IMG/VR virus record: IMGVR_UViG_2820089333_000004
Coordinates: 12,344-76,343 of that record
Direction: 5' to 3' (one strand)
Origin: a virus
DNA length: 64,000 nucleotides
This document shows positions 12,977-35,210 of this stretch, one piece after another; positions within the stretch are counted from its first letter, which is position 1; each line of letters begins with the position of its first letter. Position numbers and translations under genes: made by a program. The notes beneath the pieces are model-generated. The model was not told where the DNA came from. It searched no databases and saw only the letters and a list, made by a program, of their open reading frames with translations.

Positions 12977-13309
12977 TTGGCCGTTGCCATTACCGCCGTT
13001 TGGATCGCTGACATGGAACGTCGCCAGCGTATCAAAGAGCGCTGCGACGCTGGCCGCGCCGCCGCTCGCGCTTCGCTGGCAGCGACGGGCAAAACTCACA
13101 AGGGCAAAACTCACAAGGGCAAGGCGAGCTTGGGCCGTCCTTTCGCCAATGAAGCTGCGGCGGTCACGGCATGGCGAAAGGACAACAACGCCAGCATTTC
13201 CAAGACCGCCGCGCATTTCGGCATGTCCGTCAGCACGGTCAAGCGGTATTGCGCGGCAAAAACCTCACCAAGCCAAAACACCCACTTACCACAGCAAAAG
13301 GAAACAAAC
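12977..13309 (+). pseudogene. C-terminal remnant of a serine resolvase (arm + HTH), in frame with downstream KilA-N gene
   Basis: IADMER..RIKERCDAGRAAAR..GKASLGRP..SISKTAAHFGMSVSTVKRY; catalytic domain absent. Confidence 0.7.
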
Positions 13310-14191
13310 GTGAACGCTTTAACCGTTGTCGGCACCGCCATCCGTCAGGATACCGAAGGTTGGTTCTGCCTCAATGATCTGCACCGGGCCAGCGGCGGGG
13401 AGGCGCGACACAAGCCTGGAAACTGGTTGATGCTTGACCAAACAAAGGCGCTGATCTCTGAGGTAGAGATTGCTGGAATTCCAGCAATCCAATCAAAACA
13501 AGGACTTGGAACTTTCGTCGTCAAGGAGCTGGTCTACGCCTACGCGATGTGGATCAGCCCGGCATTCAATCTGAAAGTTATACGCGCCTATGACGCACTG
13601 GTGACGCAAACGGCCCAACCAACCCATCTCATTCCGCAAACATACCATGAAGCTCTACGGCTGGCGGCTGACAAGGAAGAACAAAGGGCAATCGCTGTAG
13701 CGGAGCGCGACGAGGCGGTTCGCACAAAAGCCCATATTGGCAACAAACGCGAAGCAACATCAATGGCAACGGCGGCCAAAGCAGAACTCGAAAAGAAACA
13801 GCTTCAGGACAAACTGACGGAAGCGCAGCTTGAGGTGATATATGCGCGAGATGATAACAGGAAATTGCTGAAGGAAAAGGCAGCGCTTGAAAGTCAGCTA
13901 AACGCCGACGAGGATGTTGTCAGCGACACTGTTACCGTTACCGATGCAGCCAAGTATTTTCGGTGCAATACGGGAAAAATACACCGTCATTTTTCTGACA
14001 AGGGCCTTGTTTACAAGTGTGAGGGAAATTGGGTGGCTACGTCTAATGGCAAAAAAAGCGGTTTGGTTGTGGCGAGCGAGCGTAAGTATCACTCGAAAAA
14101 CGGTAGCGCCTCTTTCAAGCCAAACTATCGCATTACATTGGCTGGCGCGACAGAGCTAGAAAAAGAGTTAACTTGCAAGAAGGCAGCATAA
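13310..14191 (+). CDS. KilA-N domain antirepressor-like protein with C-terminal KilAC/ANT-like domain
   Basis: IRQDTEGWFCLNDLHRASGG..KP.NWL, AYAMWISPAFNLKVIRAYD, IPQTYHEALRLAAD; AAGGA RBS before GTG. Confidence 0.85.
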   Translation: MNALTVVGTAIRQDTEGWFCLNDLHRASGGEARHKPGNWLMLDQTKALISEVEIAGIPAIQSKQGLGTFVVKELVYAYAMWISPAFNLKVIRAYDALVTQTAQPTHLIPQTYHEALRLAADKEEQRAIAVAERDEAVRTKAHIGNKREATSMATAAKAELEKKQLQDKLTEAQLEVIYARDDNRKLLKEKAALESQLNADEDVVSDTVTVTDAAKYFRCNTGKIHRHFSDKGLVYKCEGNWVATSNGKKSGLVVASERKYHSKNGSASFKPNYRITLAGATELEKELTCKKAA

Positions 14192-17348: not shown

Positions 17349-17816
17349 GTGAAACTGAACCAATACCAAAAGCAGGCGTTCGTGCGGGCTGTCATGGATG
17401 ACACGCCGTTTCCGAGTGACGAACAGATCAAGGACGAGGTGCAGGCAGCGGTGGTTGAGGCCATGTCGTCGGCGGTGCGTGAAGTTTATCGGATCGCACC
17501 GAATGCACTTGCGACTAATACCGCTTGCGTCTGTCTGAGCTACTACAGCACCAGATTTGTTGTTGGCGATGTCGACCTCCACCGTGTGACGCAACCTTGG
17601 ACCGAGCGCTTGAGGAAACGCGCGGAAGCAAAGAATCAACTGGAAGGTGTCGTCAATGGCTGTAGCACGCTGGCGCAACTGAAAAAGATGCTGCCGGAGT
17701 TTGAAAAATACATGCCGAGCGAAACGATGCCGACTAAGAATCTGCCAGTTATCGCCAACATCGTCACGTCGCTGACCGAGCTTGGCTGGCCGAAGGGCGC
17801 AGAGGTGGCGGCATGA
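17349..17816 (+). CDS. Nmad5-like (nucleotide-modification-associated domain 5) protein
   Basis: C-terminal LEGVVNGCSTLAQLKKMLPEFEKYMP pattern; operator-promoter at 17288. Confidence 0.65.
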   Translation: MKLNQYQKQAFVRAVMDDTPFPSDEQIKDEVQAAVVEAMSSAVREVYRIAPNALATNTACVCLSYYSTRFVVGDVDLHRVTQPWTERLRKRAEAKNQLEGVVNGCSTLAQLKKMLPEFEKYMPSETMPTKNLPVIANIVTSLTELGWPKGAEVAA

Positions 17817-18376
17817 GCATCGAGCAAGAAATTCAAGCCAGGGGTCTGACCGCGCCGCGTATCACGCCAGATGACATCGAGGCGAACATCATGGGCGAAG
17901 TCTATTTCACCGCTTTCGATGGCAGCACCAGAGGGGCGGACGTGCGTGTCACGCCGGACTTCGACAAAGAGGTGTTTGACACATCCTTGAGCCTACTCAC
18001 CATCTGCGTCCTCGTTCTTCGCAACGGCTTCACCGTCACTGGCGAATCCGCTTGCGTCTCTCCAGGAAACTTCGACGTCACCGCTGGCCGCGCAATTGCC
18101 CGCCAGAACGCTATCGACAAAGTGTGGCCGCTGATGGGCTACGCGCTGAAGGAAAAGCTGGCGAAGGAAAAGGGCGATTGGTTCGACCGCCTGCTGGAAG
18201 AGCGGGACGAATTGGCGGAGCGCATCGAGAAACTTGAGACTTTTCTGGATTTAACCGTAATCAGCGACCCTCAACGGAAGCGTCTGAATGCCCAACACGC
18301 GGTCATGAGCCAATATCACGACATGCTCGATGACCGCATCGGCGATGCCGCACTCGAAAGGAGTTCCAATGTCTGA
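17813..18376 (+). CDS. Phage_gp49_66-like domain fused to crAss001_48-like coiled coil
   Basis: APRITPDDIEA..LTICVLVLRNGFTVTGESACVSPGNFD; DRLLEERDELAERIEKL..Q...M..Y..ML..RI. Confidence 0.75.
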   Translation: MSIEQEIQARGLTAPRITPDDIEANIMGEVYFTAFDGSTRGADVRVTPDFDKEVFDTSLSLLTICVLVLRNGFTVTGESACVSPGNFDVTAGRAIARQNAIDKVWPLMGYALKEKLAKEKGDWFDRLLEERDELAERIEKLETFLDLTVISDPQRKRLNAQHAVMSQYHDMLDDRIGDAALERSSNV

Positions 18377-18677
18377 ATTTGCATGCCCTGTGGTGCGGCT
18401 CTGGATTGAGCCTCACCCGAACGCCGACGCCATCGAGATTGCCCGCGTCGGCGATTATCAATCCATCGTCAAGAAAGGCCAGTTCCGTGACGGTGATTTG
18501 GCCATCTATGTCCCGGAGCAGGCTGTGCTGCCGGAGTGGTTGCTGAAAGGCGCCGACCTTTGGGACGAGGACAAACAAAAAGGAACGCTTTCTGGTTCGC
18601 TTGGCAACCGCGTCAGGGCGACGCGGATCAGGGGGGTCGTTTCTCAAGGGCTTGTTTTGCCTCTCATTGCTGCATAA
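18369..18677 (+). CDS. RNA ligase (DRB0094-like), N-terminal fragment
   Basis: IEPHPNADAIEIARV.DYQSIVKKGQF..GDLAIYVPEQAVLP..RIRGVVSQGLVLP then TAA. Confidence 0.85.
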   Translation: MSEFACPVVRLWIEPHPNADAIEIARVGDYQSIVKKGQFRDGDLAIYVPEQAVLPEWLLKGADLWDEDKQKGTLSGSLGNRVRATRIRGVVSQGLVLPLIAA

Positions 18678-18691
18678 CTAATGGACGACAA

Positions 18692-19564
18692 ATGCTCATC
18701 TATCTTCTGACCAACATTCGTAACGGTAAGGTTTATGTCGGTCAAACAAAATCGCTCGATGGTCGGATGCGGCGTCACTTGAACGAGGTGCGTCGTGGCA
18801 CTAACCGCCACTTGTATGACGCGATTCGCAAGTATGGAGCTGATGTGTTCCGTGTCGAGGTGATCGAGAAAGTGTCCGACCTAGAAGCTGACGACGCCGA
18901 GTGCATGTGGATTGAATTCTACAGCTCGAACAATCGTGAGTTTGGCTACAACATGACGAAGGGCGGTGGAGGCGGTGACACCTTTACCAACCACCCAAAA
19001 AAGGAAGAAATCCGAAAGAAGCATCAAGCGCGAGAATGGACGGGAGAGCAGCGCGAGAAGTTTTCCGCCTCGATGGTAGGTAGAAAACGCGAGCCGTTCT
19101 CCAAAGAGTGGAGAGAGAAGATTCGTCAGAGCCTTATTGAATCAGGTTGCCGCCCTCCGATCAATTCGATGCCAGGAGAGTTGCATCCCATGTGGGGCAA
19201 AGCTCATTCGGAAGAAGCGAAGGCGAAAATCTCGGCAGCGCGAATGGGTAAGACTTACGAGCAGATTTTTGGCGAAAAGAAGGCGGCGGCGATGCGTGAG
19301 GCGAAGCGTCAAAAATATGTCGGGCCTGGCAATCCATTCTTCAAAGAGATGCCGATGCGAGAAATTTTGTTGGCGCTTATCGCTGAACCGAATCTGAAAA
19401 TGGACTCGCTTGCCAAGCAATTCAGAGTGTCGCGTCCAACGGTAAGTAAAAGACTGCGCGATTTGTTCGCCTGCGAGAACCTGCAAAGGCTCCGGGAGTG
19501 CGTATCGCCAGAAGAGTTTCAACAGCTTTGCAAGGAGAAAGTCAATGCAATGGAAGTTGCGTAA
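18692..19564 (+). mobile_element. GIY-YIG homing endonuclease with NUMOD3-like repeats and C-terminal HTH, inside the RNA ligase gene
   Basis: IYLLTNIRNGKVYVGQT..R...H; GYNMTKGG; HPMWGKAHSEEAKAKISAA. Confidence 0.92.
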
Positions 19565-20396
19565 TTTGGAAACAAGCGAAGATCGTATCTTTAACATTGG
19601 CGAGGACGCTGCTGAGTTCCTGGGTATCGTCAAACACGAGCCGTCGCTGCCTTCGCACATGCGGGGCAAGATCGTTGGTGTGGATCTGGACGCGACGGCC
19701 CAATACAACTTCGACAATCTCAAGAAAACGCCGAAGTTGTTCGACGATGGCGAGGATGTTGTCATTACCGAAAAGATTCACGGCACGTTCATGCAGATCG
19801 GTGTCGTGCCTTCGCGCATGGCGAACGAGAAATATTTCGCTGGCCGCGTGATTGTTTCAAGCAAGGGCATGGGCGCAAGGGGTTTCGTTCTCGATCACAA
19901 TGACGATACCAACCTTTACGCACAAGCGGCCAAGAAGCATGGGCTGCTCGAAGCAATGCTCGACACTTTTGGCGATGCTGCTGACCGTCAGAATGCCCCG
20001 ATTTTCATCTTCGGCGAGGTTTTTGGTCGAACCAACAGCGGCGCCGGAGTGCAGGACTTGACCTACGCCGACGAAGTGCTGGACTTCCGGGCGTTCGACA
20101 TCGCTGTTGGGAATCGCGGCGCGGAGCGCTACCTGGACTTTGATCACTTTGCCGCCTACTGCGACAAGATCAAGGTGCCGCATGTGCCGGTGTTGTATCG
20201 CGGCCCTTACTCAAAGGCTACCGTTCTTGAACACACCGATGGCAACACCACGCTTTCGGACAAAAAGCAGATTCGGGAAGGCGTCGTGGTGAAGTCGGCG
20301 GTCGAGTCCAGACACTCGCTGTTCGGTCGCAAGATCGCCAAGAGCATCAGTGAGGCTTACTTGCTGCGGAAAGGAAACGCAACTGAGTTCAACTAA
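19545..20396 (+). CDS. RNA ligase (DRB0094/Rnl2-like), catalytic C-terminal fragment
   Basis: GEDAAEFLGIVKHEP, motif I TEKIHGT, FGEVFG, AFDI, REGVVVK, KSISEAYLL; AAGGAG RBS inside endonuclease gene. Confidence 0.88.
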   Translation: MQWKLRNLETSEDRIFNIGEDAAEFLGIVKHEPSLPSHMRGKIVGVDLDATAQYNFDNLKKTPKLFDDGEDVVITEKIHGTFMQIGVVPSRMANEKYFAGRVIVSSKGMGARGFVLDHNDDTNLYAQAAKKHGLLEAMLDTFGDAADRQNAPIFIFGEVFGRTNSGAGVQDLTYADEVLDFRAFDIAVGNRGAERYLDFDHFAAYCDKIKVPHVPVLYRGPYSKATVLEHTDGNTTLSDKKQIREGVVVKSAVESRHSLFGRKIAKSISEAYLLRKGNATEFN

Positions 20397-20456
20397 CTGG
20401 CCGAGCTTGCTTTGGCCGTGTGATATAGTCAGTCCTTACTAGACAAAGGAGAAGTT

Positions 20457-20672
20457 ATGGCAGTAGAGGAAAACGAGATAGGTTTTCATTCGGCGCTCGA
20501 ACACATCGTCGGCGCAATGGGTATGAGCGCGAAGGAGGCGGAAGCCTTCTTGAAGAGCAAGCTGGCCGATGGCTCGCTGTCGCTGACCGGCGATGACGGA
20601 CTTCATCTGACCCCGGCGCAGTTTGCTGAACGGGTTGCCGCGCTGCCCGATGCCGAAGCGGTGTCGGCATGA
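20457..20672 (+). CDS. hypothetical protein
   Basis: AAGGAG RBS after operator at 20426. Confidence 0.7.
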   Translation: MAVEENEIGFHSALEHIVGAMGMSAKEAEAFLKSKLADGSLSLTGDDGLHLTPAQFAERVAALPDAEAVSA

Positions 20673-20741
20673 TCGTCGGTGGTGGAAACTCGACACCACT
20701 GATTAACTTGCCGAGATAACGCCTGTTTCGACGCTTTAGTA

Positions 20742-20776
20742 TAGCGGTTAATCGGTCAATGACTGATTAACCGCTA
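20742..20776. repeat. 35-bp near-perfect palindrome
   Basis: TAGCGGTTAATCGGTCA-a-TGACTGATTAACCGCTA, one G/T mismatch. Confidence 0.9.
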
Positions 20777-20816
20777 AATCAAATCGTTGAAACTGTTTTA
20801 TGGAAAGGATAAAGAG

Positions 20817-21215
20817 ATGGGGACGCAATCTGTGACTGCTGTTTATGGCGAATACGATGACACGCTGGTCAGGATGTGTCACCAGTGTGACGGCTCGCCT
20901 AGTGAGCATGGTCTTGAATTGGCCGAATTTCTCGACGGAAAGAAGTTTGTGGACGGCTTTGGTTTCGGCGAGGAAAGGGAAAACACCTTCAATGGCGAGG
21001 GTGATCTGGCCGCGCAGATTGTGGCTCATTTCAAGAAGGGGCCGGGTGGCGTTTATCTGATTGCGGACGAGTGTTTTGGCGAGGAGTTTAGTTATCACAT
21101 TCGCTTGATTGTTGATTATCTGGAGATTACCGTGATTGATCGTGATGGCCTCGATATTTTTACGGGTAACGTGGCCGAGTTCAAGTTTTGGTGCCAAGAG
21201 GCGAAAGCAAAATGA
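20817..21215 (+). CDS. hypothetical phage protein
   Basis: MGTQS..HQCDGSPSEHGLELAEFL conserved-looking N-terminus. Confidence 0.7.
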   Translation: MGTQSVTAVYGEYDDTLVRMCHQCDGSPSEHGLELAEFLDGKKFVDGFGFGEERENTFNGEGDLAAQIVAHFKKGPGGVYLIADECFGEEFSYHIRLIVDYLEITVIDRDGLDIFTGNVAEFKFWCQEAKAK

Positions 21216-21322
21216 CTGAAACGATCCTGATCTTTACCGATGGTGCCGTCACAAGTCACGAAATTGCACTCATGGCTCGCGCCATCATCTTTGACGTAAC
21301 AGGAGATGCGCAGTGGGCTTGA
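21212..21322 (+). CDS. 36-aa micro-ORF
   Basis: ATGA coupling upstream, overlaps exonuclease start. Confidence 0.45.
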   Translation: MTETILIFTDGAVTSHEIALMARAIIFDVTGDAQWA

Positions 21323-21912
21323 GAATCATCGGGCTGGACACCGAAACAACCGGGCTGAAACAGGAGCTTGGACATCGCATCATCGAGATCGCCATGCTGA
21401 CCTACGATTCGGACAGCCGCAAGCTGGTGGATAGGTGGGTTCAGCGCATCGACCCGGAGCGGCCCATTGATCCCGCTGCGCAGGAGGTGCACGGTATTGC
21501 CTACACCGATCTGGTTGGCTGCCCGAAATGGGACGAGGTGGCGCCGGAGATCGTTCGTCGCATGGGCGAGGCTGACCTGCTGGTGGCGCACAACATGGGT
21601 TTTGATGGCCCGTTCGTCGCTGCCGAGTTGATTCGGGTCGGCTTGCGAGTGCCGAATACGCCCTCTGTCTGCACGATGGAAAGCGCCCGATGGGCTTGCC
21701 CCGATGGGAAGCTGCCCCGTTTAGGCGAGCTGTGTTTTGCGCTGGGCGTCAGGTATGACGCGGCCAAAGCACACAGCGCAATATACGACGTGGACATTAT
21801 GATGGAGTGCTTGTTTCGCGGTTTGAAACGCGGCTTCTACAGGCTGCCGGAGGTTGAGTGTAACGCCAGCTCCTTTCGCAACTGTCACGATGCTGAATTG
21901 AAGGCGGCATAA
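21313..21912 (+). CDS. DEDDh 3'-5' exonuclease (DnaQ/epsilon-like)
   Basis: LDTETTG, VAHNMGFD, AHSAIYD. Confidence 0.92.
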   Translation: MGLRIIGLDTETTGLKQELGHRIIEIAMLTYDSDSRKLVDRWVQRIDPERPIDPAAQEVHGIAYTDLVGCPKWDEVAPEIVRRMGEADLLVAHNMGFDGPFVAAELIRVGLRVPNTPSVCTMESARWACPDGKLPRLGELCFALGVRYDAAKAHSAIYDVDIMMECLFRGLKRGFYRLPEVECNASSFRNCHDAELKAA

Positions 21913-21913
21913 G

Positions 21914-22186
21914 GTGAGGCTCGACAACTACACGGACGATGAGCTTGAGCGCCTGTCTTTTCATTCCGGCAACGAGCTTGCGCAGGAATTGGCACTCCGC
22001 TACTCCCGAAAGGATGACGAAATTGCCGACAAGGAACAAGAGATCGAGGTTCTGGAGCGCGATCTTGAGATAAAAGCGGAGCAGGTTTCATTCGCGCAGG
22101 AGCTTGTAAACAAAATCCGCGAAGCCTTCGAGTGCCACACGACCGCCAAAGAGTTGCGTGGCGAAATTAAAAGGCTGTTGGGTTAA
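21914..22186 (+). CDS. hypothetical coiled-coil protein
   Basis: TAAGG RBS, GTG start. Confidence 0.6.
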   Translation: MRLDNYTDDELERLSFHSGNELAQELALRYSRKDDEIADKEQEIEVLERDLEIKAEQVSFAQELVNKIREAFECHTTAKELRGEIKRLLG

Positions 22187-22216
22187 ACCTTTTTTCGAGT
22201 TTTGAGAGGAGCAGCG

Positions 22217-22579
22217 ATGAAAGTCAAAACAATAGAATTGATAGGCGCGGCGCTCGATTGGGCGGTGTTGGTCGCCATGTATGGGAAACACGACCCGAGC
22301 AACAAAAGGCATATCGAGCATTTCAAGGAAATACGGGAATGCCACCTATTGCGCCAACAAGCACGATTCTCTGAAAGATGGGAACACGGCGGCCCGATTA
22401 TCGAGCGCGAGAGAATCAGCATGATAAAAGCGCCTGGAAATATCTGGTCAGCGACCATTGTTCTGGCAAGCGGATTTGTTGTTATGCGGATTCACGACAA
22501 CCCTCTCGTTGCCGCCATGCGCTGCTACGTTGCGGCAAAACTTGGCGACGTGGTGGAAATACCAGAGGAGTTGTGTTGA
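22217..22579 (+). CDS. DUF2591/NinX-like phage protein
   Basis: LIGAALDWAV..W.HGGPIIERE.IS..PLVAAMRCYVAAKLG. Confidence 0.85.
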   Translation: MKVKTIELIGAALDWAVLVAMYGKHDPSNKRHIEHFKEIRECHLLRQQARFSERWEHGGPIIERERISMIKAPGNIWSATIVLASGFVVMRIHDNPLVAAMRCYVAAKLGDVVEIPEELC

Positions 22580-22649
22580 CGACAGAGCGGTGCCTGATAC
22601 CGAGCGATAGCATTCAAATCATAGCAACCAACAACGAAAGGGAAAGTAA

Positions 22650-23099
22650 ATGAATGCTAAATTGGGTCAGGCAAGACGACATCTGATGAACGATGAACTT
22701 CTTGCAAAGTTCATGCCCCTTCAACAACGCCTGTCTTTGCGCGAACAGCTTGAAGGCGAAGAGGGTGACTTCTTCGTCCAGAAGGTGCTGGAGATTGCCG
22801 ACATTATTCGCGGAACGCCGGTTACGTATGGCACCGAAGATGTCGACACGGAGGACAAGGTGCTGCGCCTGCACTACTTCATGGGCGGCGTCGATGCTTG
22901 GATCGTCGAGCGGGACGTTGGTGACACGCCAGCCGAGAACGGTGAAGGCGAGCAGATACAAGCATACGGGAAATGCACGCTCTTTGGCGGTGGGTGGCGC
23001 GAGGCGGAATGGGGTTACATCTCGATTCAGAAACTGATTGAGAACGGCGTCGAGCTTGACCTGTATTGGACGCCCAGGACCTGCAAGGAGATGAAATGA
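22650..23099 (+). CDS. DUF2958-like protein
   Basis: TYGTE..DKVLRLHYFMGGVDAWIVERD..AEWGYISI.KL. Confidence 0.7.
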   Translation: MNAKLGQARRHLMNDELLAKFMPLQQRLSLREQLEGEEGDFFVQKVLEIADIIRGTPVTYGTEDVDTEDKVLRLHYFMGGVDAWIVERDVGDTPAENGEGEQIQAYGKCTLFGGGWREAEWGYISIQKLIENGVELDLYWTPRTCKEMK

Positions 23100-23212
23100 A
23101 TACGGTTGACGGGCAAGCCCTGTGGTCTTTGTGGTCTTGGCGCTGGTCGTTCGCCAGGGGCTGGCGATGGGCACATGAGCGGCATTGCGCCAACAGCACA
23201 AAGAATGAGTGA
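23096..23212 (+). CDS. 38-aa Trp-rich micro-ORF
   Basis: AAGGAG RBS, ATGA and TGATG couplings; MNTVDGQALWSLWSWRWSFARGWRWAHERHCANSTKNE. Confidence 0.5.
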   Translation: MNTVDGQALWSLWSWRWSFARGWRWAHERHCANSTKNE

Positions 23213-23310
23213 TGAAGGTTTTCCAGCAATGTGAGCCGGACGTGCTTTTCGCCTTGAAGAAAGGCAATGGAAAGCCGCCAAAGCCAAAAGACCACAGGGA
23301 GCAATCATGA
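23212..23310 (+). CDS. 32-aa micro-ORF
   Basis: coupled on both sides (TGATG, ATGA). Confidence 0.45.
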   Translation: MKVFQQCEPDVLFALKKGNGKPPKPKDHREQS

Positions 23311-23759
23311 CCAAGTATTTCGGACGCGACGGACGCGCTATTCATCGTCACGAGTGGAGTCGCCTGCTAGGCGACCACAGCTATAGTGTCGTCCGCGAAT
23401 ACGACAATGGCGAGGTATTTGTCCGTCTGCGTTGGCATGGCGAGGTTAGTGACCCCAATATTTTTCGGGACTGCTGGAATCTCTTTTTGCTTACCGTTGG
23501 CAACTACAACGCCGTCGGCGAACTGAAAGCCGATCCGGTCGAGAACGGCAAATGGTTCGCTTACGAGGAAGATGGCATCAAAGCCTACGAAGCGTTCCTG
23601 ACTCGCTGGACGCCGTGTTGCATTGACGCTGACGGCAGGTTTGAGGAGTGCGACAACACGCTAGCGCCACCACCGCCACCAAACCCTGACGTGCCTGTGA
23701 CCGACATATTGACGCTCGCGTGCCTAAAGCTCGGCGATGACGACGTTGGTGTCTGGTGA
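23307..23759 (+). CDS. hypothetical protein
   Basis: AGGGAG RBS. Confidence 0.7.
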   Translation: MTKYFGRDGRAIHRHEWSRLLGDHSYSVVREYDNGEVFVRLRWHGEVSDPNIFRDCWNLFLLTVGNYNAVGELKADPVENGKWFAYEEDGIKAYEAFLTRWTPCCIDADGRFEECDNTLAPPPPPNPDVPVTDILTLACLKLGDDDVGVW

Positions 23760-23850
23760 TTGGACAAATCAAATCGGTTATATCGGTGCCTGACATCAGG
23801 TTTCATCATTTCGTTACTGCGTTTTGCAGCGATTACGAAAGGGAAGCCAA

Positions 23851-24186
23851 ATGTCCAAAGCTCTTGTTCGCGTCAGAACCACACGCCACCCAATCAGCGA
23901 AGAAGTTATCGGTTTTCGCCTCGAAGCTGCTATTCCAAACAGCGACGGTCGCATCATGAAGGTTCGCCATGATGCGAATGGAAAAGCAGACAGTTTTTAC
24001 GCAACAAAAGAAGAGGCGCCGAGTTTTCGCAAGCCTTTCTTTATCGAGGAAAGCTCCGACTACAGCCTGATCGACGAGCGCAAGCTGGAACGGTTTGTCA
24101 GCAATTTGAAATGGCAGGGCTACGATGAATTCGAGTTGGTTGGCAAGTATCAGGGCGAGCCGCTGGCTGCGCAGTTCGTTGTTTGA
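23851..24186 (+). CDS. hypothetical protein
   Basis: GAAAGGG RBS, promoter at 23788. Confidence 0.7.
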   Translation: MSKALVRVRTTRHPISEEVIGFRLEAAIPNSDGRIMKVRHDANGKADSFYATKEEAPSFRKPFFIEESSDYSLIDERKLERFVSNLKWQGYDEFELVGKYQGEPLAAQFVV

Positions 24187-28491: not shown

Positions 28492-28552
28492 ACACACGCC
28501 TAGAACCAGCAGTCACAATAACGACATCGACAAACACGAAAGGGAGCAATCA

Positions 28553-28879
28553 ATGAACGCCGAACAACGCCAAGCAATCGAACGCAAAATCGTTCGCCGC
28601 CTGATTCGCGCCATGAAGCAAAAAGGATGGAATGCTCTTTATGTCTTTGATGGTGAGGAGCGCGCCCCGTGCAAAACCGAGCGTGAGGTGACGGACACTG
28701 CTTTCAGTGTGGATACGTCCATTATTTGCTTTCAAAAGCTTCGCCGCGTCCAAATTGTTCTCGGCAATAACGGCTACAACGTCATTGCAGATCGCTCGCT
28801 ATCCAACCCAGACATCCCAGAGGACGATTTCGAGAGAATCATGGACGAAGTGCAAGAATACGCCGATCAATTCGCGTAA
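28553..28879 (+). CDS. hypothetical protein
   Basis: promoter at 28498, GAAAGGGAG RBS. Confidence 0.7.
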   Translation: MNAEQRQAIERKIVRRLIRAMKQKGWNALYVFDGEERAPCKTEREVTDTAFSVDTSIICFQKLRRVQIVLGNNGYNVIADRSLSNPDIPEDDFERIMDEVQEYADQFA

Positions 28880-28900
28880 ATTCAAGTCAAAATTTCCCAC

Positions 28901-28928
28901 AAAGGCGCTTTACAAAGGCGCCTTTTTC
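28901..28928 (+). terminator. intrinsic terminator
   Basis: AAAGGCGC..GCGCCTTT + T-run. Confidence 0.7.
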
Positions 28929-29239
28929 ATGTTCAGGCCAACGCCACGGCAATGACCAATATAAGCATTTGATTATAAAGAATAATATACAATTATCATA
29001 ATCTTTCAGCGACCAACAAAAGTCAGCCGAATGTGTAAATCCACTTTACAAGAGATCAACAAGAGATCAACAGCTTTAACGACAGCATCAGACTATCAGA
29101 AACACGTTGTAGCGCGCTCCAAACACATCGGGAATACCGCGATAGCACCGAACCACTTCCAATCGAATACAGGGCGATTCTGTGAGTTGTCCAAGTAGCG
29201 AGAACAAAACCGATGACAGCTACAAGAACAAGCAACCCG

Positions 29240-29660
29240 TCACGGACGTAGGCTACATGCGGGAGAGTAGATGATGACCAGGCACAAAAGAACAAAGGAA
29301 CCGGCGTGTGCTTGAACGGACAGAGGCGGTAGGAGATGGAAGAGAGTGAGAGCGAAACAGAGGTAGAGGCGTAGAGAGCAGAGAGGAGAACGAAAGGGGA
29401 GTAGTAAAAACAGTAAGAGGACAGAGAGACAAAGAGAAGGAGGAAGGAGAGGAACAGTAAGGGGAGGTGCGGGGCGGCGGTAATATCTTCCTCCTCCCAA
29501 TCCACTTCCTCCCTTCCCCTTATAACCATAACTTATATGCCTATAACTTTTAGTTATGCCTGTCATCCCCTCCATCCATTCCGCCGCCGGTCCTTCCCTC
29601 CTCGGCACACAGGCATCACCCAGTTCCCTCACCCTCGGCATTCCGAGTCTTTCATCCGCA
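29240..29660. other. low-complexity purine tract switching to pyrimidine tract
   Basis: + strand A/G-rich to ~29480, C/T-rich after. Confidence 0.8.
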
Positions 29661-29776
29661 GGTGGGTTGTTCTTTCCAAGGCAGTCTTTCCGACGCCGGT
29701 ATTGTTCTGCATTTGCGTCACACGCCTGTCTCTGCGTCTTATCATAGTCATCATCACGATAACGAGAGGACACATC

Positions 29777-29980
29777 ATGACGCCCGAAGTCAAAGTTGCG
29801 CTGGATCACGTTCGCTCCCTCTTCCCTGACGTGGTGTGCGTGACCTACGACGAGGAGTGGCGCTGGCATTACGAAACCGGGAGCGGCTTCCTGCCCTCGT
29901 TTGACGAGCGGATCGACATTGCTCTCCTTGAGGATGCGGCTGACTCGCTCGACGTGGTGCCAGCGACGCTCTACGCCTGA
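29777..29980 (+). CDS. hypothetical protein
   Basis: promoter at 29724, GAGAGG RBS. Confidence 0.7.
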   Translation: MTPEVKVALDHVRSLFPDVVCVTYDEEWRWHYETGSGFLPSFDERIDIALLEDAADSLDVVPATLYA

Positions 29981-30036
29981 TTGTCGGCATTGGTTGGATC
30001 TTGCAGAAGAAGGCGCAAAAAATTTTGGTTTGCCTG

Positions 30037-30066
30037 TTGACAGCTCTAGTAAGCACTGACTAGAAT
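30037..30066 (+). promoter_or_regulatory. sigma70 promoter overlapped by operator
   Basis: TTGACA-N18-TAGAAT with operator 30047-30062 in the spacer. Confidence 0.8.
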
Positions 30067-30071
30067 TGTCG

Positions 30072-30420
30072 CAGATGGGTTTTCTCCTCTCATGCCGACC
30101 ACAGATGACCGTGGCGACCACTCAGAGGAATTGCCTCTTTTTGTTCTAGGGACTTCTTTTTCTCGCGGTTGTTTTGACTTATACGAAGGTCTGCCTTGAG
30201 AAGGCAGACTTCGGTAAGGAGAACCGGGAAAACGATGTCTCCAGTTCTTCTCTACCTTCTCTTGTCCTCAAATGGGGAAAGGGGGGGTAGGGGGGGATTG
30301 GGGACTTCGTTTTTCTCCCGAAGTTTTCCTTACCGAATGGGTTGCACACCTTTAAGAAACTTCGTTTCTTAAAACAAAATCTTTCCCCTCATTGCGTCCA
30401 GAGTAAACGTAATGAAGTTT
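30072..30420 (+). ncRNA. candidate structured non-coding RNA
   Basis: stems 30189-30209 (9 bp), 30210-30337 (~59 bp, 11 G·U), 30351-30373 (10 bp), 30389-30415 (9 bp); upstream promoter; no credible ORF/RBS. Confidence 0.65.
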
Positions 30421-30681
30421 TCGAGGAGATGGCAGCCAGCAGGCAACCTTCAATTTTTGCCTTCTTTCAGGCGAACAACAAATCCCCAATGTTTTTATGT
30501 AAAACTTCCTTGGCAGAAAAATCGCCGCGCCGAGGATGTTCCCAAGGCAATCCAAGGTTGTCTCGGTTTCTTGGGTTTCCTTGGCCGACGATGAGATTGT
30601 CCGCAACAAAACACGTCGGTGCCTTGGTCGGGCTGCAATAATCTGTCTTGTCGCAACAGCAAACCACGAAAGGGAATAAAA

Positions 30682-30771
30682 ATGCATGAATCCGCTTCTT
30701 ACACGCTCGCGCTGAAATCTGTCGCAAGCCCTTCCTTTCGCGTTCAGTCATCGCCAAGGCACCGGGATTGA
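30682..30771 (+). CDS. 29-aa microprotein or gene remnant
   Basis: promoter at 30621, GAAAGGG RBS. Confidence 0.45.
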   Translation: MHESASYTLALKSVASPSFRVQSSPRHRD

Positions 30772-30995
30772 GAGCTTCATGGTCATCAGGCAACAGGCGG
30801 TCGCAGCGGGTCAGACAATCCAAGGCATCGGTCTACGGTCATCAGGCGATAGGTGTTCCGTGGATTTCCTTGGCGGTAGAAATAAAAAAGGCAACCCGAC
30901 AAGGTTTCCTGTGAAAACACATCGGTGCCTGTAATCGGGCGTCAGAATAACAACTGTCGCAACAAACAACAACCAACCACGTAAAGGTAACAAAA

Positions 30996-31415
30996 ATGGG
31001 CCAACTGACCTACAACGAAATCATCCAGAACCACAAGACCATGACCGCCAGCGAACTGCACGCTGCGATGAAAGGGTATCTCGTCAATCATCCCATGCTC
31101 AATCACGATTTCGTAGAAGGTGATGATCCTCAGAACGTGAACTACATGTTCGCGGTTTGGGCCATTGAAGCCGATGCGCGTATCGAGTCCAAGCAAGACA
31201 TGCTTGATCTGCTGTCGGTTCTCGAAAAGCAATGTCCGGTCATCGCCATCGACGAAGGGTTCTACGGTGGTTGTCGTGCGAATAGTAATCAAGAGTTGAT
31301 CGTTCAAAAGATCAAATTCGATATTGCTAATGAGTTCTATCACGCAGACGATTATCCCGCCTATCAAGCTGCGGTAGAACTGGGCTGGTTGCAACCCGAA
31401 GCCGAAACCGTCTGA
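30996..31415 (+). CDS. hypothetical protein
   Basis: promoter at 30927, TAAAGG RBS, downstream terminator. Confidence 0.75.
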   Translation: MGQLTYNEIIQNHKTMTASELHAAMKGYLVNHPMLNHDFVEGDDPQNVNYMFAVWAIEADARIESKQDMLDLLSVLEKQCPVIAIDEGFYGGCRANSNQELIVQKIKFDIANEFYHADDYPAYQAAVELGWLQPEAETV

Positions 31416-31433
31416 CGGTATCCAGCAGCAACC

Positions 31434-31465
31434 AGAAGGGCGCCAATCGCGGGCGCCCTTCTCTT
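31434..31465 (+). terminator. 11-bp hairpin terminator
   Basis: AGAAGGGCGCC-aatcgcg-GGCGCCCTTCT. Confidence 0.7.
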
Positions 31466-31705
31466 GTCACCAGAACATGCCTTGGCGGGCGTAGAACGCG
31501 CTACAGGGCGCTCCAAGGCGCACGGTTCATCGCGGTCAGGCGCTGTCAGGCATTCCGAGGCTCTTCAGGAGTCAGGCAATCCAAGGCAGCAGTTCCCGGT
31601 TCTCAGGCGTCAGGCAATCTCACAGGAAACATACCAGCGCATCGTCGGTGCCTGTGACCGACACTCAAACTGATTCGACCCAAACCAGAACAAAAGGTCG
31701 AGTTA

Positions 31706-31900
31706 ATGAACTATCAATTTACCGCGCTTTGCATTTACACAATTGGCGCCCTGCTTGTCGTCCTGAGCATTATTGAGAATGCGCCTGCGTCGGGCGCTGC
31801 TGCATTCATCCTTTGTGCAATCATCGCAATCAACATTTCTGCACGCGCCTGCAAACATACGGGAAATAACTCGCAGCGTCTCTACAAAGGCAACCTCTGA
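31706..31900 (+). CDS. small two-helix membrane protein
   Basis: promoter at 31650; two hydrophobic segments. Confidence 0.55.
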   Translation: MNYQFTALCIYTIGALLVVLSIIENAPASGAAAFILCAIIAINISARACKHTGNNSQRLYKGNL

Positions 31901-31997
31901 ACGTTTCCTGACCGATGCTGCGAATCGCCTTTGATCGTCGGTCAAACTGAAATTGTCGCAGTTGCGACGATAACCAATCACTTTGAAAGGTAAGACC

Positions 31998-32216
31998 ATG
32001 AACCGCCCGAATGCCCGCGTTTGTGAAGCAAAGATTCCCGCAGCCATCGAGCCGTATCGTTTCAACCAAGTAAAATCGAATGTCAAGCAATACCGGGAAC
32101 AAGAGGACATTACCGCTTGGTTGAAAGACCAAGATGACGCAGAGATTGATTTTCTGACCTGTGAGCTTTCAAACAAGGGTAATCGTGAATATCGACGATC
32201 CTTGAATTACCGCTGA
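31998..32216 (+). CDS. hypothetical protein
   Basis: promoter at 31927, GAAAGG RBS. Confidence 0.65.
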   Translation: MNRPNARVCEAKIPAAIEPYRFNQVKSNVKQYREQEDITAWLKDQDDAEIDFLTCELSNKGNREYRRSLNYR

Positions 32217-32502
32217 TCGCAAGCGGTCGATAAAGGCAGGTCAAGCGAGAGCACGCGACCTGCCTGTTCATGCGCGTGATGTTCCTTGGCGACCGGGAGA
32301 TTGGAGCGCCAAGGAGCGCGAACTGGAGTCTCCAAGCGACCACGATTTTCCCGCAACCCCTGCGAGCGCCAAGGCAACCACGCTTTTCCTGCTAGTTAGC
32401 AGCGCCGTGGCGACCCTGTTTTTGGACAATCTTTCAGGATCGCCTTGGCGGTGGGGTTTTAGGCGGGCAGGCGAACTTGCGCGAATGTCGGGCGATTGGA
32501 CG

Positions 32503-32757
32503 CTACTGCTTTTCAACAATCTTCAATATTGCTAATTGATCTTCACGCGAAAGACTGCGAAATTTTGAAATTAAATTTTCTCTTTCTTTTTTTTCTTTAA
32601 TGAAAAGCCCTTGCGCTTCGATTTTCGCAATGTCGCTATGCAATATCAATACTTCCAAAAACTCACCTTGTGTAATAGCAAGCCGCTCTGATTCCACTTT
32701 TAGACGCTCTTTTGCTGCGTCGCTGTTCATCGCAATGACATGACGTTGTTGTTTCAT
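32503..32757 (-). CDS. small AT-rich protein, possible ribbon-helix-helix regulator
   Basis: RHVIAMNSDAAKERLKVESERLAITQGEFLEVLI (strand-helix-helix pattern); divergent from 32924 gene. Confidence 0.55.
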   Translation of the reverse strand: MKQQRHVIAMNSDAAKERLKVESERLAITQGEFLEVLILHSDIAKIEAQGLFIKEKKERENLISKFRSLSREDQLAILKIVEKQ

Positions 32758-32923
32758 AATAACACCTTAGTAATTTTAACTCTTAAATTATAGTCCGGTT
32801 TTGTGTAGATTGTTTCTTGTTACACGCTGTTACAAATAAACCCTTGCTAATCTACCCGCAATGCGTAGAATGTTCATTAGTAGATCAATTGTTGATCTAC
32901 ACTAACCACAAAGGGTTACTATC

Positions 32924-33595
32924 ATGACCACGAATGCAAAAACCACGAACAAGACAACCCGCCCGCAATCAAACAAGGGCAAGACTGCTACCGCTACTGT
33001 GAAAGCGGTAGAAAAGAAAGATGCGCCCGCCCTTGACGGTTTCAAGAGTGTTTGCGACGCTCTTAAGTTACGCATTCAAAGCGCGCTTACTGATAGCAAG
33101 CGTAAAGAAGCGCGCTTTTCACTGCAACGTCTTAACGAGAAGAATATTGTCGTATTTTTTGAAATGGGCGCGATTGCTCCCGATAATTATGCAAAAACGG
33201 TTTCTGTCAAAGAAGGGCAAACAGGGCATGTTTGCGGTAAAACACTCATGAAAATGAGCGACCTAACAAATGTGATCCCGACCAATGACAAGCGTATGGG
33301 CGAAGCATTTCTAACATACCTAATTGAAGGTATGTTAGAGAATGGGAACCAGTTGAGTGTAAAAGAAATGGTTTTTACGCTTGCGAAAGGTGTAGAGAAT
33401 GACGATTGTCGGGAAGCTGTTAAGAAAAAAGCTAGCTACACCGTCGGGACAGCGGTTTCACAGTCTAGCAAAGTAAGATTCGCTCTTGCTGCGCTAAACC
33501 TTGCAACTATCATACCGGGCAAGAAAAACGACATTTGCATGCTGACTGAAAAGGGCATTGCTTTGCTAACGCCCGCGTATGGGAAACCGAAGTAA
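32924..33595 (+). CDS. AT-rich hypothetical protein, probable winged-helix C-terminus
   Basis: AAAGGG RBS; TTGCTA-N16-TAGAAT promoter; YTVGTAVSQ..MLTEKG. Confidence 0.75.
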   Translation: MTTNAKTTNKTTRPQSNKGKTATATVKAVEKKDAPALDGFKSVCDALKLRIQSALTDSKRKEARFSLQRLNEKNIVVFFEMGAIAPDNYAKTVSVKEGQTGHVCGKTLMKMSDLTNVIPTNDKRMGEAFLTYLIEGMLENGNQLSVKEMVFTLAKGVENDDCREAVKKKASYTVGTAVSQSSKVRFALAALNLATIIPGKKNDICMLTEKGIALLTPAYGKPK

Positions 33596-34342: not shown

Positions 34343-34588
34343 ATGCGCGTAACCATTAAAAAGTGGGGCAACAGCGCATCTGTGCGCATTCCTGCCCCGA
34401 TCATGCTTGCTGCCAACCTCCAAGTCGACGCCACCGTGGATGTGCGAGAGGAGAGCGGTTTAGTCGTCATTGAGCCAGTCGTGGCTGATGTCGGTTGCGA
34501 CCTGAACGCCCTGATCGCAGGCATCACGCCAGAGAACCTGCACGACGAGGTTGATTTCGGCCCGGCTGTTGGCGGGGAAGCGTTTTGA
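34343..34588 (+). CDS. mazE: AbrB/MazE-family antitoxin
   Basis: IKKWGNSASVRIPA..L..LIAGITPENLHDEVDFGPAVGGE. Confidence 0.93.
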   Translation: MRVTIKKWGNSASVRIPAPIMLAANLQVDATVDVREESGLVVIEPVVADVGCDLNALIAGITPENLHDEVDFGPAVGGEAF

Positions 34589-34923
34589 TGGCCCGCTACA
34601 TCCCGGACGCCGGAGATATTGTATGGCTGCAATTCAACCCGCAAGCTGGACACGAACAGGCGGGTCGTCGGCCAGCCATTGTCCTTAGTCCCGCGTCTTA
34701 CAATGGGCGCGTTGGCTTGATGCTGTGCTGTCCGATGACGAGCCAAGCAAAGGATTATCCATTCGAGGTGATTTTGTCCAACAAGACGAGCGTGGTGCTG
34801 GCCGACCAAGTGAAAAGCGTCGCGTGGAGCGCCAGAAATGCGGAATTCAAAGAAAAGGCAACGCCGGCTGAGTTGTCGGAGGTTCGCAGAAAGGCGGCGC
34901 TGCTGATCGGTGTTGCGCAGTGA
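34588..34923 (+). CDS. mazF: MazF/PemK endoribonuclease toxin
   Basis: YIPDAGDIVWLQFNPQAGHEQAGRRPAIVLS..CPMTSQ..LADQVKS. Confidence 0.95.
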   Translation: MARYIPDAGDIVWLQFNPQAGHEQAGRRPAIVLSPASYNGRVGLMLCCPMTSQAKDYPFEVILSNKTSVVLADQVKSVAWSARNAEFKEKATPAELSEVRRKAALLIGVAQ

Positions 34924-35210
34924 TTCGCCTGCTTCTCGTCATCATCGCGGCCATGATTGCAACTACAGCAGTCGCCAAAACGCACCGCGATCCGGCAATG
35001 CGACGCCAATTCATGTATGACAACCCGTGTCCGGCTACTGGCAGCACCAAGGGCGCTTGTCCTGGCTGGCAGGTGGATCACGTCGTTCCGCTGAAGTGTG
35101 GTGGTGCCGACGCTCCGGCCAACATGCAATGGCTGACCATCGGGGATCACAAGGCAAAGACCAAGCGCGAGGCGAAATCGTGCAGGGCGAAGAGCGCGAG
35201 GAGAAGGTGA
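34920..35210 (+). CDS. signal-peptide HNH-like nuclease
   Basis: hydrophobic N-terminus; CPATG..CPGWQVDHVVPLKCGGADAPANMQWL..H..KT. Confidence 0.85.
   Translation: MIRLLLVIIAAMIATTAVAKTHRDPAMRRQFMYDNPCPATGSTKGACPGWQVDHVVPLKCGGADAPANMQWLTIGDHKAKTKREAKSCRAKSARRR

Follow-up and report, generated by a model that had tools for sequence, protein, structure and literature searches.

A gene-free interval behind a strong promoter

The window, by which we mean the whole 64,000-nt stretch of DNA analysed here, is part of a 130.6-kb contig (C1) within a 2.58-Mb metagenome bin, and its DNA is present in three termite-gut metagenome runs, its possible source. The large terminase shares 58-59% identity with those of Salmonella phage SSU5 and of Klebsiella, E. 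coli and Pseudomonas relatives. Furthermore, the order of a UvsW-like helicase gene (- strand), two ParB genes, an ABC ATPase gene and the terminase gene is the same as in the Klebsiella phage-plasmid pJN2-26 and in E. coli Cyrano. This terminase identity and shared gene order indicate that the host element is a phage-plasmid of the SSU5/AB type from termite gut, and they bear out what the original prediction had assumed about its nature. The last 38 kb of C1 may differ in nature, since the palindromic sites described below end at 92.6 kb. A KilA-N/ANT gene of the phage lies at 12977-14191, 16 kb from the element described here.

The interval at 29981-30995 (approximately 1 kb) contains no credible gene, only short ORFs that are not conserved, in agreement with the original prediction, which saw no credible gene in the roughly 350 nt behind the promoter. 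ORF conservation across the element region does not reach beyond three close relatives. No relative of the ORFs on either side (29777-29980 and 30996-31415) was found among 5.8 billion proteins, and the genes that come next downstream are orphans that apparently have their own promoters; no antirepressor or replication gene lies directly downstream. We rejected a retron msr-msd at this position: no large ORF adjoins the RNA, the + strand holds nothing longer than about 150 aa in 28879-32924, and the longer upstream frames on the - strand are of low complexity. This judgement was made on ORF size, and a Pfam scan covered other proteins of the window.

The features of the interval, together with the positions of a palindrome that recurs in the window, are as follows.

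30037-30066, + strand: sigma-70-type promoter, with -35 TTGACA (30037-30042), an 18-nt spacer and -10 TAGAAT (30061-30066)
30046-30063, no strand: palindromic site with core AGTAAG-CA-CTGACT (AGTAAGCACTGACT at 30048-30061), in the promoter spacer and overlapping the -10 box
30073-30141, + strand: 5' leader, a hairpin and then a U/C-rich tract (terminator-like at 30124-30138), from the fold; relatives have a leader hairpin and pyrimidine tract in the same place
30142-30190, + strand: box A, about 45 nt together with a G-run, repeated directly as the rod's 3' arm (box C), from the comparison of A with C and the fold of truncated transcripts
30188-30210, + strand: 10-bp hairpin P2, the link between box A and arm B, from the fold
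30211-30269, + strand: arm B, the 5' arm of the rod, whose apical half is a C/U tract, from the fold and covariation
30270-30273, + strand: apical loop AAAU, from the fold
30274-30303, + strand: G-tract of four G-runs, pairing with the C/U tract largely via G.U, from invariant columns
30296-30340, + strand: box C, the basal 3' arm of the rod and direct repeat of box A, from the comparison of A with C and covariation
30351-30373, + strand: tail hairpin, A/U-rich, 9-10 bp, from the fold
30390-30421, + strand: hairpin CATTGCGT / loop CCAGAGTAA / ACGTAATG followed by UUUU, a possible 3' end, from the fold
1447, 8660, 11162, 17289, 20427, 26335, 30048, 37205, 41645, 42058, 46740, 51045, 51649, 58316 and 58683: copies of the palindrome in the window

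Folding of the whole 354-nt stretch at 30072-30425 gave -147 kcal/mol (z -7.1 relative to shuffled sequences) and a centroid with four elements, namely the 10-bp hairpin at 30188-30210, a long rod at 30211-30336, and tail hairpins at 30351-30373 and 30390-30414. Of the 57 pairs in the rod, 46 are Watson-Crick and 11 are G.U; the helix is interrupted by a single 1x1 U.U mismatch and two small bulges and is capped by the AAAU loop. The minimum free energy (MFE) computed for RNA from 30200-30345 is -89.5 kcal/mol on the + strand (z -10.2, a value reached by 0 of 200 shuffles) versus -51.8 on the - strand.

The original prediction had described a long wobble-rich hairpin flanked by three stems, behind a TTGACA-N18-TAGAAT promoter and a weak terminator in the leader, and each of these parts was recovered. 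The long hairpin is the rod itself, and the three stems (30188-30210, 30351-30373 and 30390-30414) appear in both the MFE structure and the centroid of the whole stretch. A terminator-like hairpin is found at 30124-30138. The promoter carries 11 of 12 consensus letters and is the best sigma-70-like site in 28800-33000 in a consensus scan, with a predicted transcription start near 30073. The original prediction had also not recognised the element as a known family, and the Rfam search agreed at both thresholds: neither the whole window nor six relatives gave a match at the gathering score, and at E<=10 there were almost only generic microRNA-precursor-like hairpins, far below threshold, and no phage immunity RNA.

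Related elements in Acinetobacter plasmids

A blastn search of the window's element against phages, plasmids and 60 related genomes returned no match, the exact G-arm pattern was absent from viral contigs, and searches with the flanking proteins revealed no relatives. A search with a 17-letter leader motif recovered one true relative along with chance hits in coding DNA. A terminase search yielded 80 related viral contigs. In the closest relative the region is collinear with that of the window, and a 60-nt stretch of the leader and the 3' arm match at 76-78%. This copy is 72% identical overall to the window element and has TTGACA, 18 nt and TACAAT with the palindrome, the same leader motif, a shorter rod and a G6-TAA-G6 tract.

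The 10 kb beyond the helicase gene was taken from 36 related records and searched iteratively with an nhmmer profile. The element was found in 13 of these records, always on the same strand and 4-5.5 kb from the end of the UvsW-like helicase gene, and a search for G-runs added five records of one further clade, which brought the total to 13 distinct sequences. A hairpin at the P2 position is present in all relatives with differing letters. The loop and stem letters of the hairpin at 30390-30421 recur in the distant AT-rich relatives L104, L134 and L135.

Two of the element types are identical or nearly so to sequences in 127 and 27 Acinetobacter plasmids (154 in total, 90-160 kb in size), from A. 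baumannii, A. pittii and A. nosocomialis, with no annotated feature under the match. In the classification of phage-plasmids by Pfeifer et al. (2021; PMC7969092), these carriers are the AB group. In plasmid NZ_CP026705 of A. baumannii AR_0056, the element occupies a 2.2-kb gap free of CDS directly after the anti-restriction gene ardA. The same plasmid has an IS26-bounded island with aph(3')-Ia, mph(E) and msr(E) at 17544-24159, inserted in a ribonucleotide reductase region. No copy of the RNA element could be detected in Cyrano or pJN2-26, which are SSU5-type elements of enterobacteria. We considered the highly expressed CYRAN_43 (PMC9928086) as a counterpart and rejected it, as it is a protein gene elsewhere in the Cyrano genome. 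The rod thus appears, on comparison of these sequences, to be the core of a family of noncoding RNAs of about 350-450 nt that is absent from Rfam and is carried by more than 150 Acinetobacter plasmids.

Selection on the plus-strand structure

All 12 distinct homologues examined, from GC-rich to AT-rich, form a single rod of 111-140 nt with 43-60 pairs, even though the relatives have diverged to about 45% column identity. MAFFT with RNAalifold did not align the 5' arms of the rods, and covariance-model and arm-anchored alignments were used instead. Three close relatives served as the seed of a covariance model, with which seven further members were aligned; the seed sequences were left out of the test. 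In this alignment 89.6% of cells are paired versus 64.5% in shuffled controls, 30 of 42 pairs are changed on both sides (17.6 in shuffles), and the covariation score is 0.78 versus 0.29; none of 500 shuffles reached any of these measures. When the partner is shifted by 1-3 columns, pairing falls to 48-58% and the number of doubly changed pairs to 7-14. An alignment fitted to the model favours the structure, and the margins are large. The independent arm-anchored alignment agrees, with the bias that its partners were taken from each MFE structure. Population data offered no usable covariation, as there were no sequence variants in 28500-32500 among the contigs of four runs (three DNA samples were identical).

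The rod also shows a strong strand bias. Its MFE in the window is -85.2 kcal/mol on the + strand versus -48.0 on the - strand, and the + strand fold is the more stable one in 12 of 12 homologues. Among the 603 pairs of the 12 rods there are 107 G.U and 2 A.C. A DNA palindrome that decays by transitions would give equal numbers of the two, and this disparity therefore indicates that the selected object is the + single strand. The unequal strand energies and wobble counts also led us to reject a DNA inverted repeat or cruciform. Selection on the + strand was what the original prediction had proposed from the wobble pairs of one sequence, with covariation among homologues as a check; the compensatory changes, collected here from relatives, point the same way and show that the rod has been maintained in the phage-plasmid lineage. 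The conserved promoter with its palindrome, the covariation and the negative Rfam search all lend support to its most likely reading, an operator-controlled noncoding RNA.

Inverted repeats are common in phage intergenic DNA, and this is the sole point in favour of a decaying repeat with no function. We find that explanation scarcely credible, given conservation at about 45% column identity, the 30 of 42 doubly changed pairs and the G.U to A.C ratio of 107:2.

A genome-wide palindrome in the promoter spacer

The spacer operator of the original prediction is present as a palindrome and is conserved in relatives, which keep the order of -35 box, palindrome and -10 box. It is not private to the RNA promoter. 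The pattern AGT(A/C)A-N4-T(G/T)ACT followed by a -10-like hexamer TA(T/G)A.. has 25 copies on C1 versus 0.26 expected, and just 2 in the other 2.45 Mb of the bin. Similarly, NZ_CP026705 has 26 copies versus 0.8 expected. Most of the sites lie 40-90 nt upstream of gene starts, phage-wide and with structural genes included, in the spacers of sigma-70-like promoters whose -35 boxes range from weak to good. The RNA promoter is the sole one among the 25 with a full TTGACA and, judged by sequence alone, is probably the strongest unit of the palindrome regulon.

This palindrome would seem to define a genome-wide operator or promoter class that is conserved across the lineage. Its position in the spacer fits the operator of a global repressor, by analogy with C1 of phage P1. 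Alternatively, the palindrome may be an activator site, like those of P1 late promoters.

Boxes A, B and C and two exclusive folds

The most conserved letters of the family are two runs of 5-7 G with 1-3 A/T between them (four runs in the window). They lie outside the basal helix and face the C/U tract via many wobbles. Box C, about 45 nt from a G-run onward, directly repeats the leader's box A. Although the boxes differ between genomes, the best match of each box A in an all-against-all comparison was the box C from its own genome or from the nearest relative. This pattern shows that the two copies co-evolve within each genome.

Because box A resembles box C, it can also pair with arm B. When the transcript is cut in silico after B, an A:B rod in the same register forms in 12 of 12 homologues, with the G-run of A opposite the C-rich end of B and the apex formed by a small hairpin. 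If box C is barred from pairing, every member takes up the A:B pairing together with an independent apical C/U:G hairpin, and this state falls short of the full B:C rod in stability by 10-30 kcal/mol. Since the A:B state forms without C and is less stable than B:C, it is likely to be a co-transcriptional intermediate that C must displace. The A:B pairing energy clearly exceeds that of shuffled A sequences in just 5 of 12 homologues, and duplex tests were mixed; the likeness of A and C could therefore serve something other than pairing with B, such as two copies of a protein-binding site.

Several other features were considered and dropped. A three-tetrad intramolecular G-quadruplex is possible only with G7 runs, as found in the window and in the Acinetobacter types and not in all members, and thus does not define the family. 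Two further ideas, CsrA-like GGA motifs at the ends of the boxes and mimicry of CRISPR repeats, were judged by eye not to be conserved.

The 3' ends differ among lineages. In three lineages the G-tract is followed, at distances of 177, 190 and 362 nt, by a canonical intrinsic terminator, and by our estimate the unit there is a discrete RNA of some 380-560 nt. The tails of the other lineages are poor in G and rich in C/A, and they lack a canonical terminator within 600 nt. The window's own tail closes with the hairpin and UUUU at 30390-30421.

These tails bear on whether the RNA might instead be a cis-acting leader that modifies RNA polymerase or gates Rho-dependent or intrinsic termination, so that transcription would end behind the rod or else continue into the downstream cassettes of small genes. 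Comparable cases are put of phage HK022 and nut of lambda, which are structured leader RNAs that act in cis on polymerase and involve two short stem-loops and boxA/boxB, respectively. As in those systems, the structured RNA here lies directly downstream of an early promoter. In addition, its leader hairpin is followed by a U/C tract, the A:B and B:C folds are mutually exclusive, several relatives have an unstructured, C-rich/G-poor tail downstream of the rod that resembles a Rho loading site, and most lineages are without a canonical terminator within 600 nt. On the other hand, put and nut are much smaller than the window RNA and no similarity to them was found, a strong intrinsic terminator closes the unit before the next gene in three lineages, and the downstream genes vary between relatives and seem to have their own promoters. 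We therefore regard attenuation or antitermination as a rather unlikely function, albeit one with several points in its favour.

A near-perfect helix of 44-60 bp kept in all members, a strong promoter and the location of the A. baumannii copy in a gene-free gap right after ardA would also suit a stand-alone double-stranded RNA effector made early. Such an RNA could titrate a host dsRNA-binding factor or defence sensor, as a decoy or sponge, or could be cut by RNase III into small RNAs. A decoy leaves the co-evolving box A, the conserved letters of the G-runs and the conserved leader unexplained, and we judge this explanation to be unlikely.

A possible two-state regulatory RNA

The explanation that we favour, with a confidence that falls a little short of even, is that the element encodes a two-state, strand-exchange regulatory RNA of an early, repressor-controlled programme, with a layout like that of the P4 CI region. 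Its structure, covariation and alternative fold are computed; its transcription, the use of the switch and what the RNA controls are what we infer. The region would produce a discrete + strand noncoding RNA of about 350-450 nt from a strong sigma-70-type promoter. This promoter, which carries the genome-wide palindromic operator, would be silent when the operator is occupied, and the RNA would be made on infection or induction. The RNA would contain three related segments: leader box A, arm B complementary to both A and C, and box C, a co-evolving repeat of A. During transcription, A would pair with B while the apical C/U:G-run hairpin forms independently. Once C has been made, the B:C pairing and the apical hairpin would merge into one rod of 44-60 bp, more stable by 10-30 kcal/mol, and box A would be freed.

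In P4 immunity, transcription is terminated when CI RNA, a product of leader processing, pairs with seqA and seqC, such that pairing of a leader segment with its neighbouring direct repeats governs transcription or translation further downstream (PMC4825925, citing Ghisotti 1992, Sabbattini 1995 and Briani 2000). The strand-exchange RNA proposed here is likewise an untranslated leader behind an early promoter of a phage-plasmid. Moreover, a leader segment (seqB in P4, arm B here) is complementary to the direct repeats that flank it (seqA and seqC in P4, boxes A and C here); in our folds, the partner of B is C in the rod and A when the transcript is truncated. In contrast to these likenesses, there is no similarity in sequence or to the Rfam model, B and C form one 44-60-bp rod in cis whereas CI is a small processed RNA of about 70-80 nt, and the genes downstream of the window RNA are not replication genes.

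The c4 region of P1 and the CA region of N15 have the same layout as the P4 immunity region. The c4 antisense RNA of P1/P7 and the CA RNA of N15 belong to secondary immunity regions that control antirepressors. The likeness again is that a repressor-controlled promoter is followed by a leader-encoded regulatory RNA in a phage-plasmid; the differences are that no icd or ant genes follow the window RNA and that no model match was found. (A reference for N15 is listed in PMC7969092.) When A, B, C, the G-tract, the leader and the tail were compared by BLAST with the 130-kb contig to find trans targets, only chance-level words came up. One G-rich match at the contig start was rejected as a poly-G artefact: bases 1-75 of C1, which lie outside the window, are a long poly-G run that most likely arose in sequencing or assembly. 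Given the lack of a model match, the far larger rod, the absence of an antirepressor or replication gene after it and the absence of a trans target on the contig, membership in the P4 CI, P1 c4 or N15 CA families is not supported.

The alternative pairings also invite comparison with replication elements, either a DNA or ssDNA site for single-strand initiation or primosome assembly, or a transcription-primed (ColE1-like, R-loop) origin. A strand-specific hairpin would also be expected of ssDNA signals such as single-strand initiation sites and ssDNA promoters, which act in elements that pass through a single-stranded stage, and G.T wobbles are tolerated in ssDNA as well, such that strand specificity alone does not separate RNA from ssDNA. 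In ColE1 RNA II, alpha-beta pairing alternates with beta-gamma pairing, and a G-run is needed for a persistent RNA-DNA hybrid. The window RNA recalls this primer in being a transcript of several hundred nucleotides with mutually exclusive long-range pairings and a functionally suspect G-run, in a plasmid-like replicon, and an AT-rich block with a purine-to-pyrimidine switch lies just upstream. However, initiator-independent replication of the ColE1 type is not what the annotation of a relative (NZ_CP026705, distinct from the window contig) describes: it has a RepB-family initiator at 92807-93655, a DnaB-like helicase and a primase, all 44 kb from the element. Furthermore, the GC skew does not switch at the element, and a consensus scan, a weak test, revealed no promoter-like site for an RNA I-like antisense transcript on the - strand of 30073-30420. 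The conserved promoter, leader and terminators favour an RNA product over ssDNA, and we consider a replication element very improbable.

Implications for phage-plasmid biology

A bolder version of the strand-exchange proposal, which we hold to be quite improbable, is that the RNA is the master timing device of AB/SSU5-type phage-plasmids. An RNA-only switch from A:B to B:C, with a conserved G-run/C-U wobble helix, would by its exchange kinetics decide between lytic development and plasmid lysogeny, or set superinfection immunity, possibly together with an RNA chaperone of the element itself. The A. baumannii member NZ_CP026705 has its own plasmid-borne Hfq-family RNA chaperone (94580-95119), located beside RepB and the DnaB-like helicase. 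There is no Hfq gene on the window's contig, and the only one of the bin is on contig C15. If this reading were true, the RNA would represent a class of riboregulator so far undescribed.

No regulatory RNA of AB-group phage-plasmids was found in the literature searched, and the group did not include even a known phage (Pfeifer et al., 2021; PMC7969092). AB-group phage-plasmids are common in clinical Acinetobacter, and the NZ_CP026705 copy carries IS26-flanked resistance genes. A strongly conserved, strongly promoted and unannotated RNA of 350-450 nt with an unusual two-state design could offer a handle on the choice between plasmid life and lysis, and the family is directly testable in a culturable host. 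It is also a well-supported addition to the short list of large structured phage RNAs and a clean natural case in which wobble pairs preserve an RNA helix while breaking a DNA palindrome.

Sequences and genes around the element

Upstream of the promoter, 28955-29700 contains an AT-rich block and an 11-bp tandem repeat, followed by about 200 nt of purine-rich + strand that gives way to about 180 nt of pyrimidine-rich sequence; a hairpin sits centrally, near 29428-29527. Relatives have a similar purine-then-pyrimidine block immediately in front of the RNA promoter. The predicted fold of this region is no better than that of shuffles on the + strand (z 0.0) and weakly better on the - strand (z -2.3).

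Downstream, repeated non-coding modules of 200-300 nt rich in CCAAGGC/GCCTTGG occupy 30490-30680, 30780-30995, 31460-31700 and 32270-32460. The motif has 20 copies in the window versus 9.9 expected, of which 10 lie within 29676-32448. Each of the first three modules ends with a promoter-like box of the GGTGCCTG type, a C/A-rich leader, an RBS and a small orphan gene, and the closest relative (L093) has a module of the same kind.

A gene at 32924-33595 (+ strand) encodes a protein of 223 aa whose family is found 1.2-3.4 kb downstream of the RNA in 12 genomes. The protein has no Pfam match and no named PHROG. Its AlphaFold model (pLDDT 72) has a C-terminal winged-helix-like domain with weak MarR/eS10-type matches only, and we regard the protein as a candidate nucleic-acid-binding partner or regulator. 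A small gene at 32503-32757 (- strand) is divergent from it. The control region shared by the two genes contains a perfect 21-bp palindrome, GTAGATCAA-TTG-TTGATCTAC, at 32877-32897, which looks like a separate local operator. Further downstream, as judged from the translations, 34343-34588 and 34585-34923 encode a MazE/AbrB-like and PemK/MazF-like pair, and a small HNH-like ORF comes next, all within 34343-35210.
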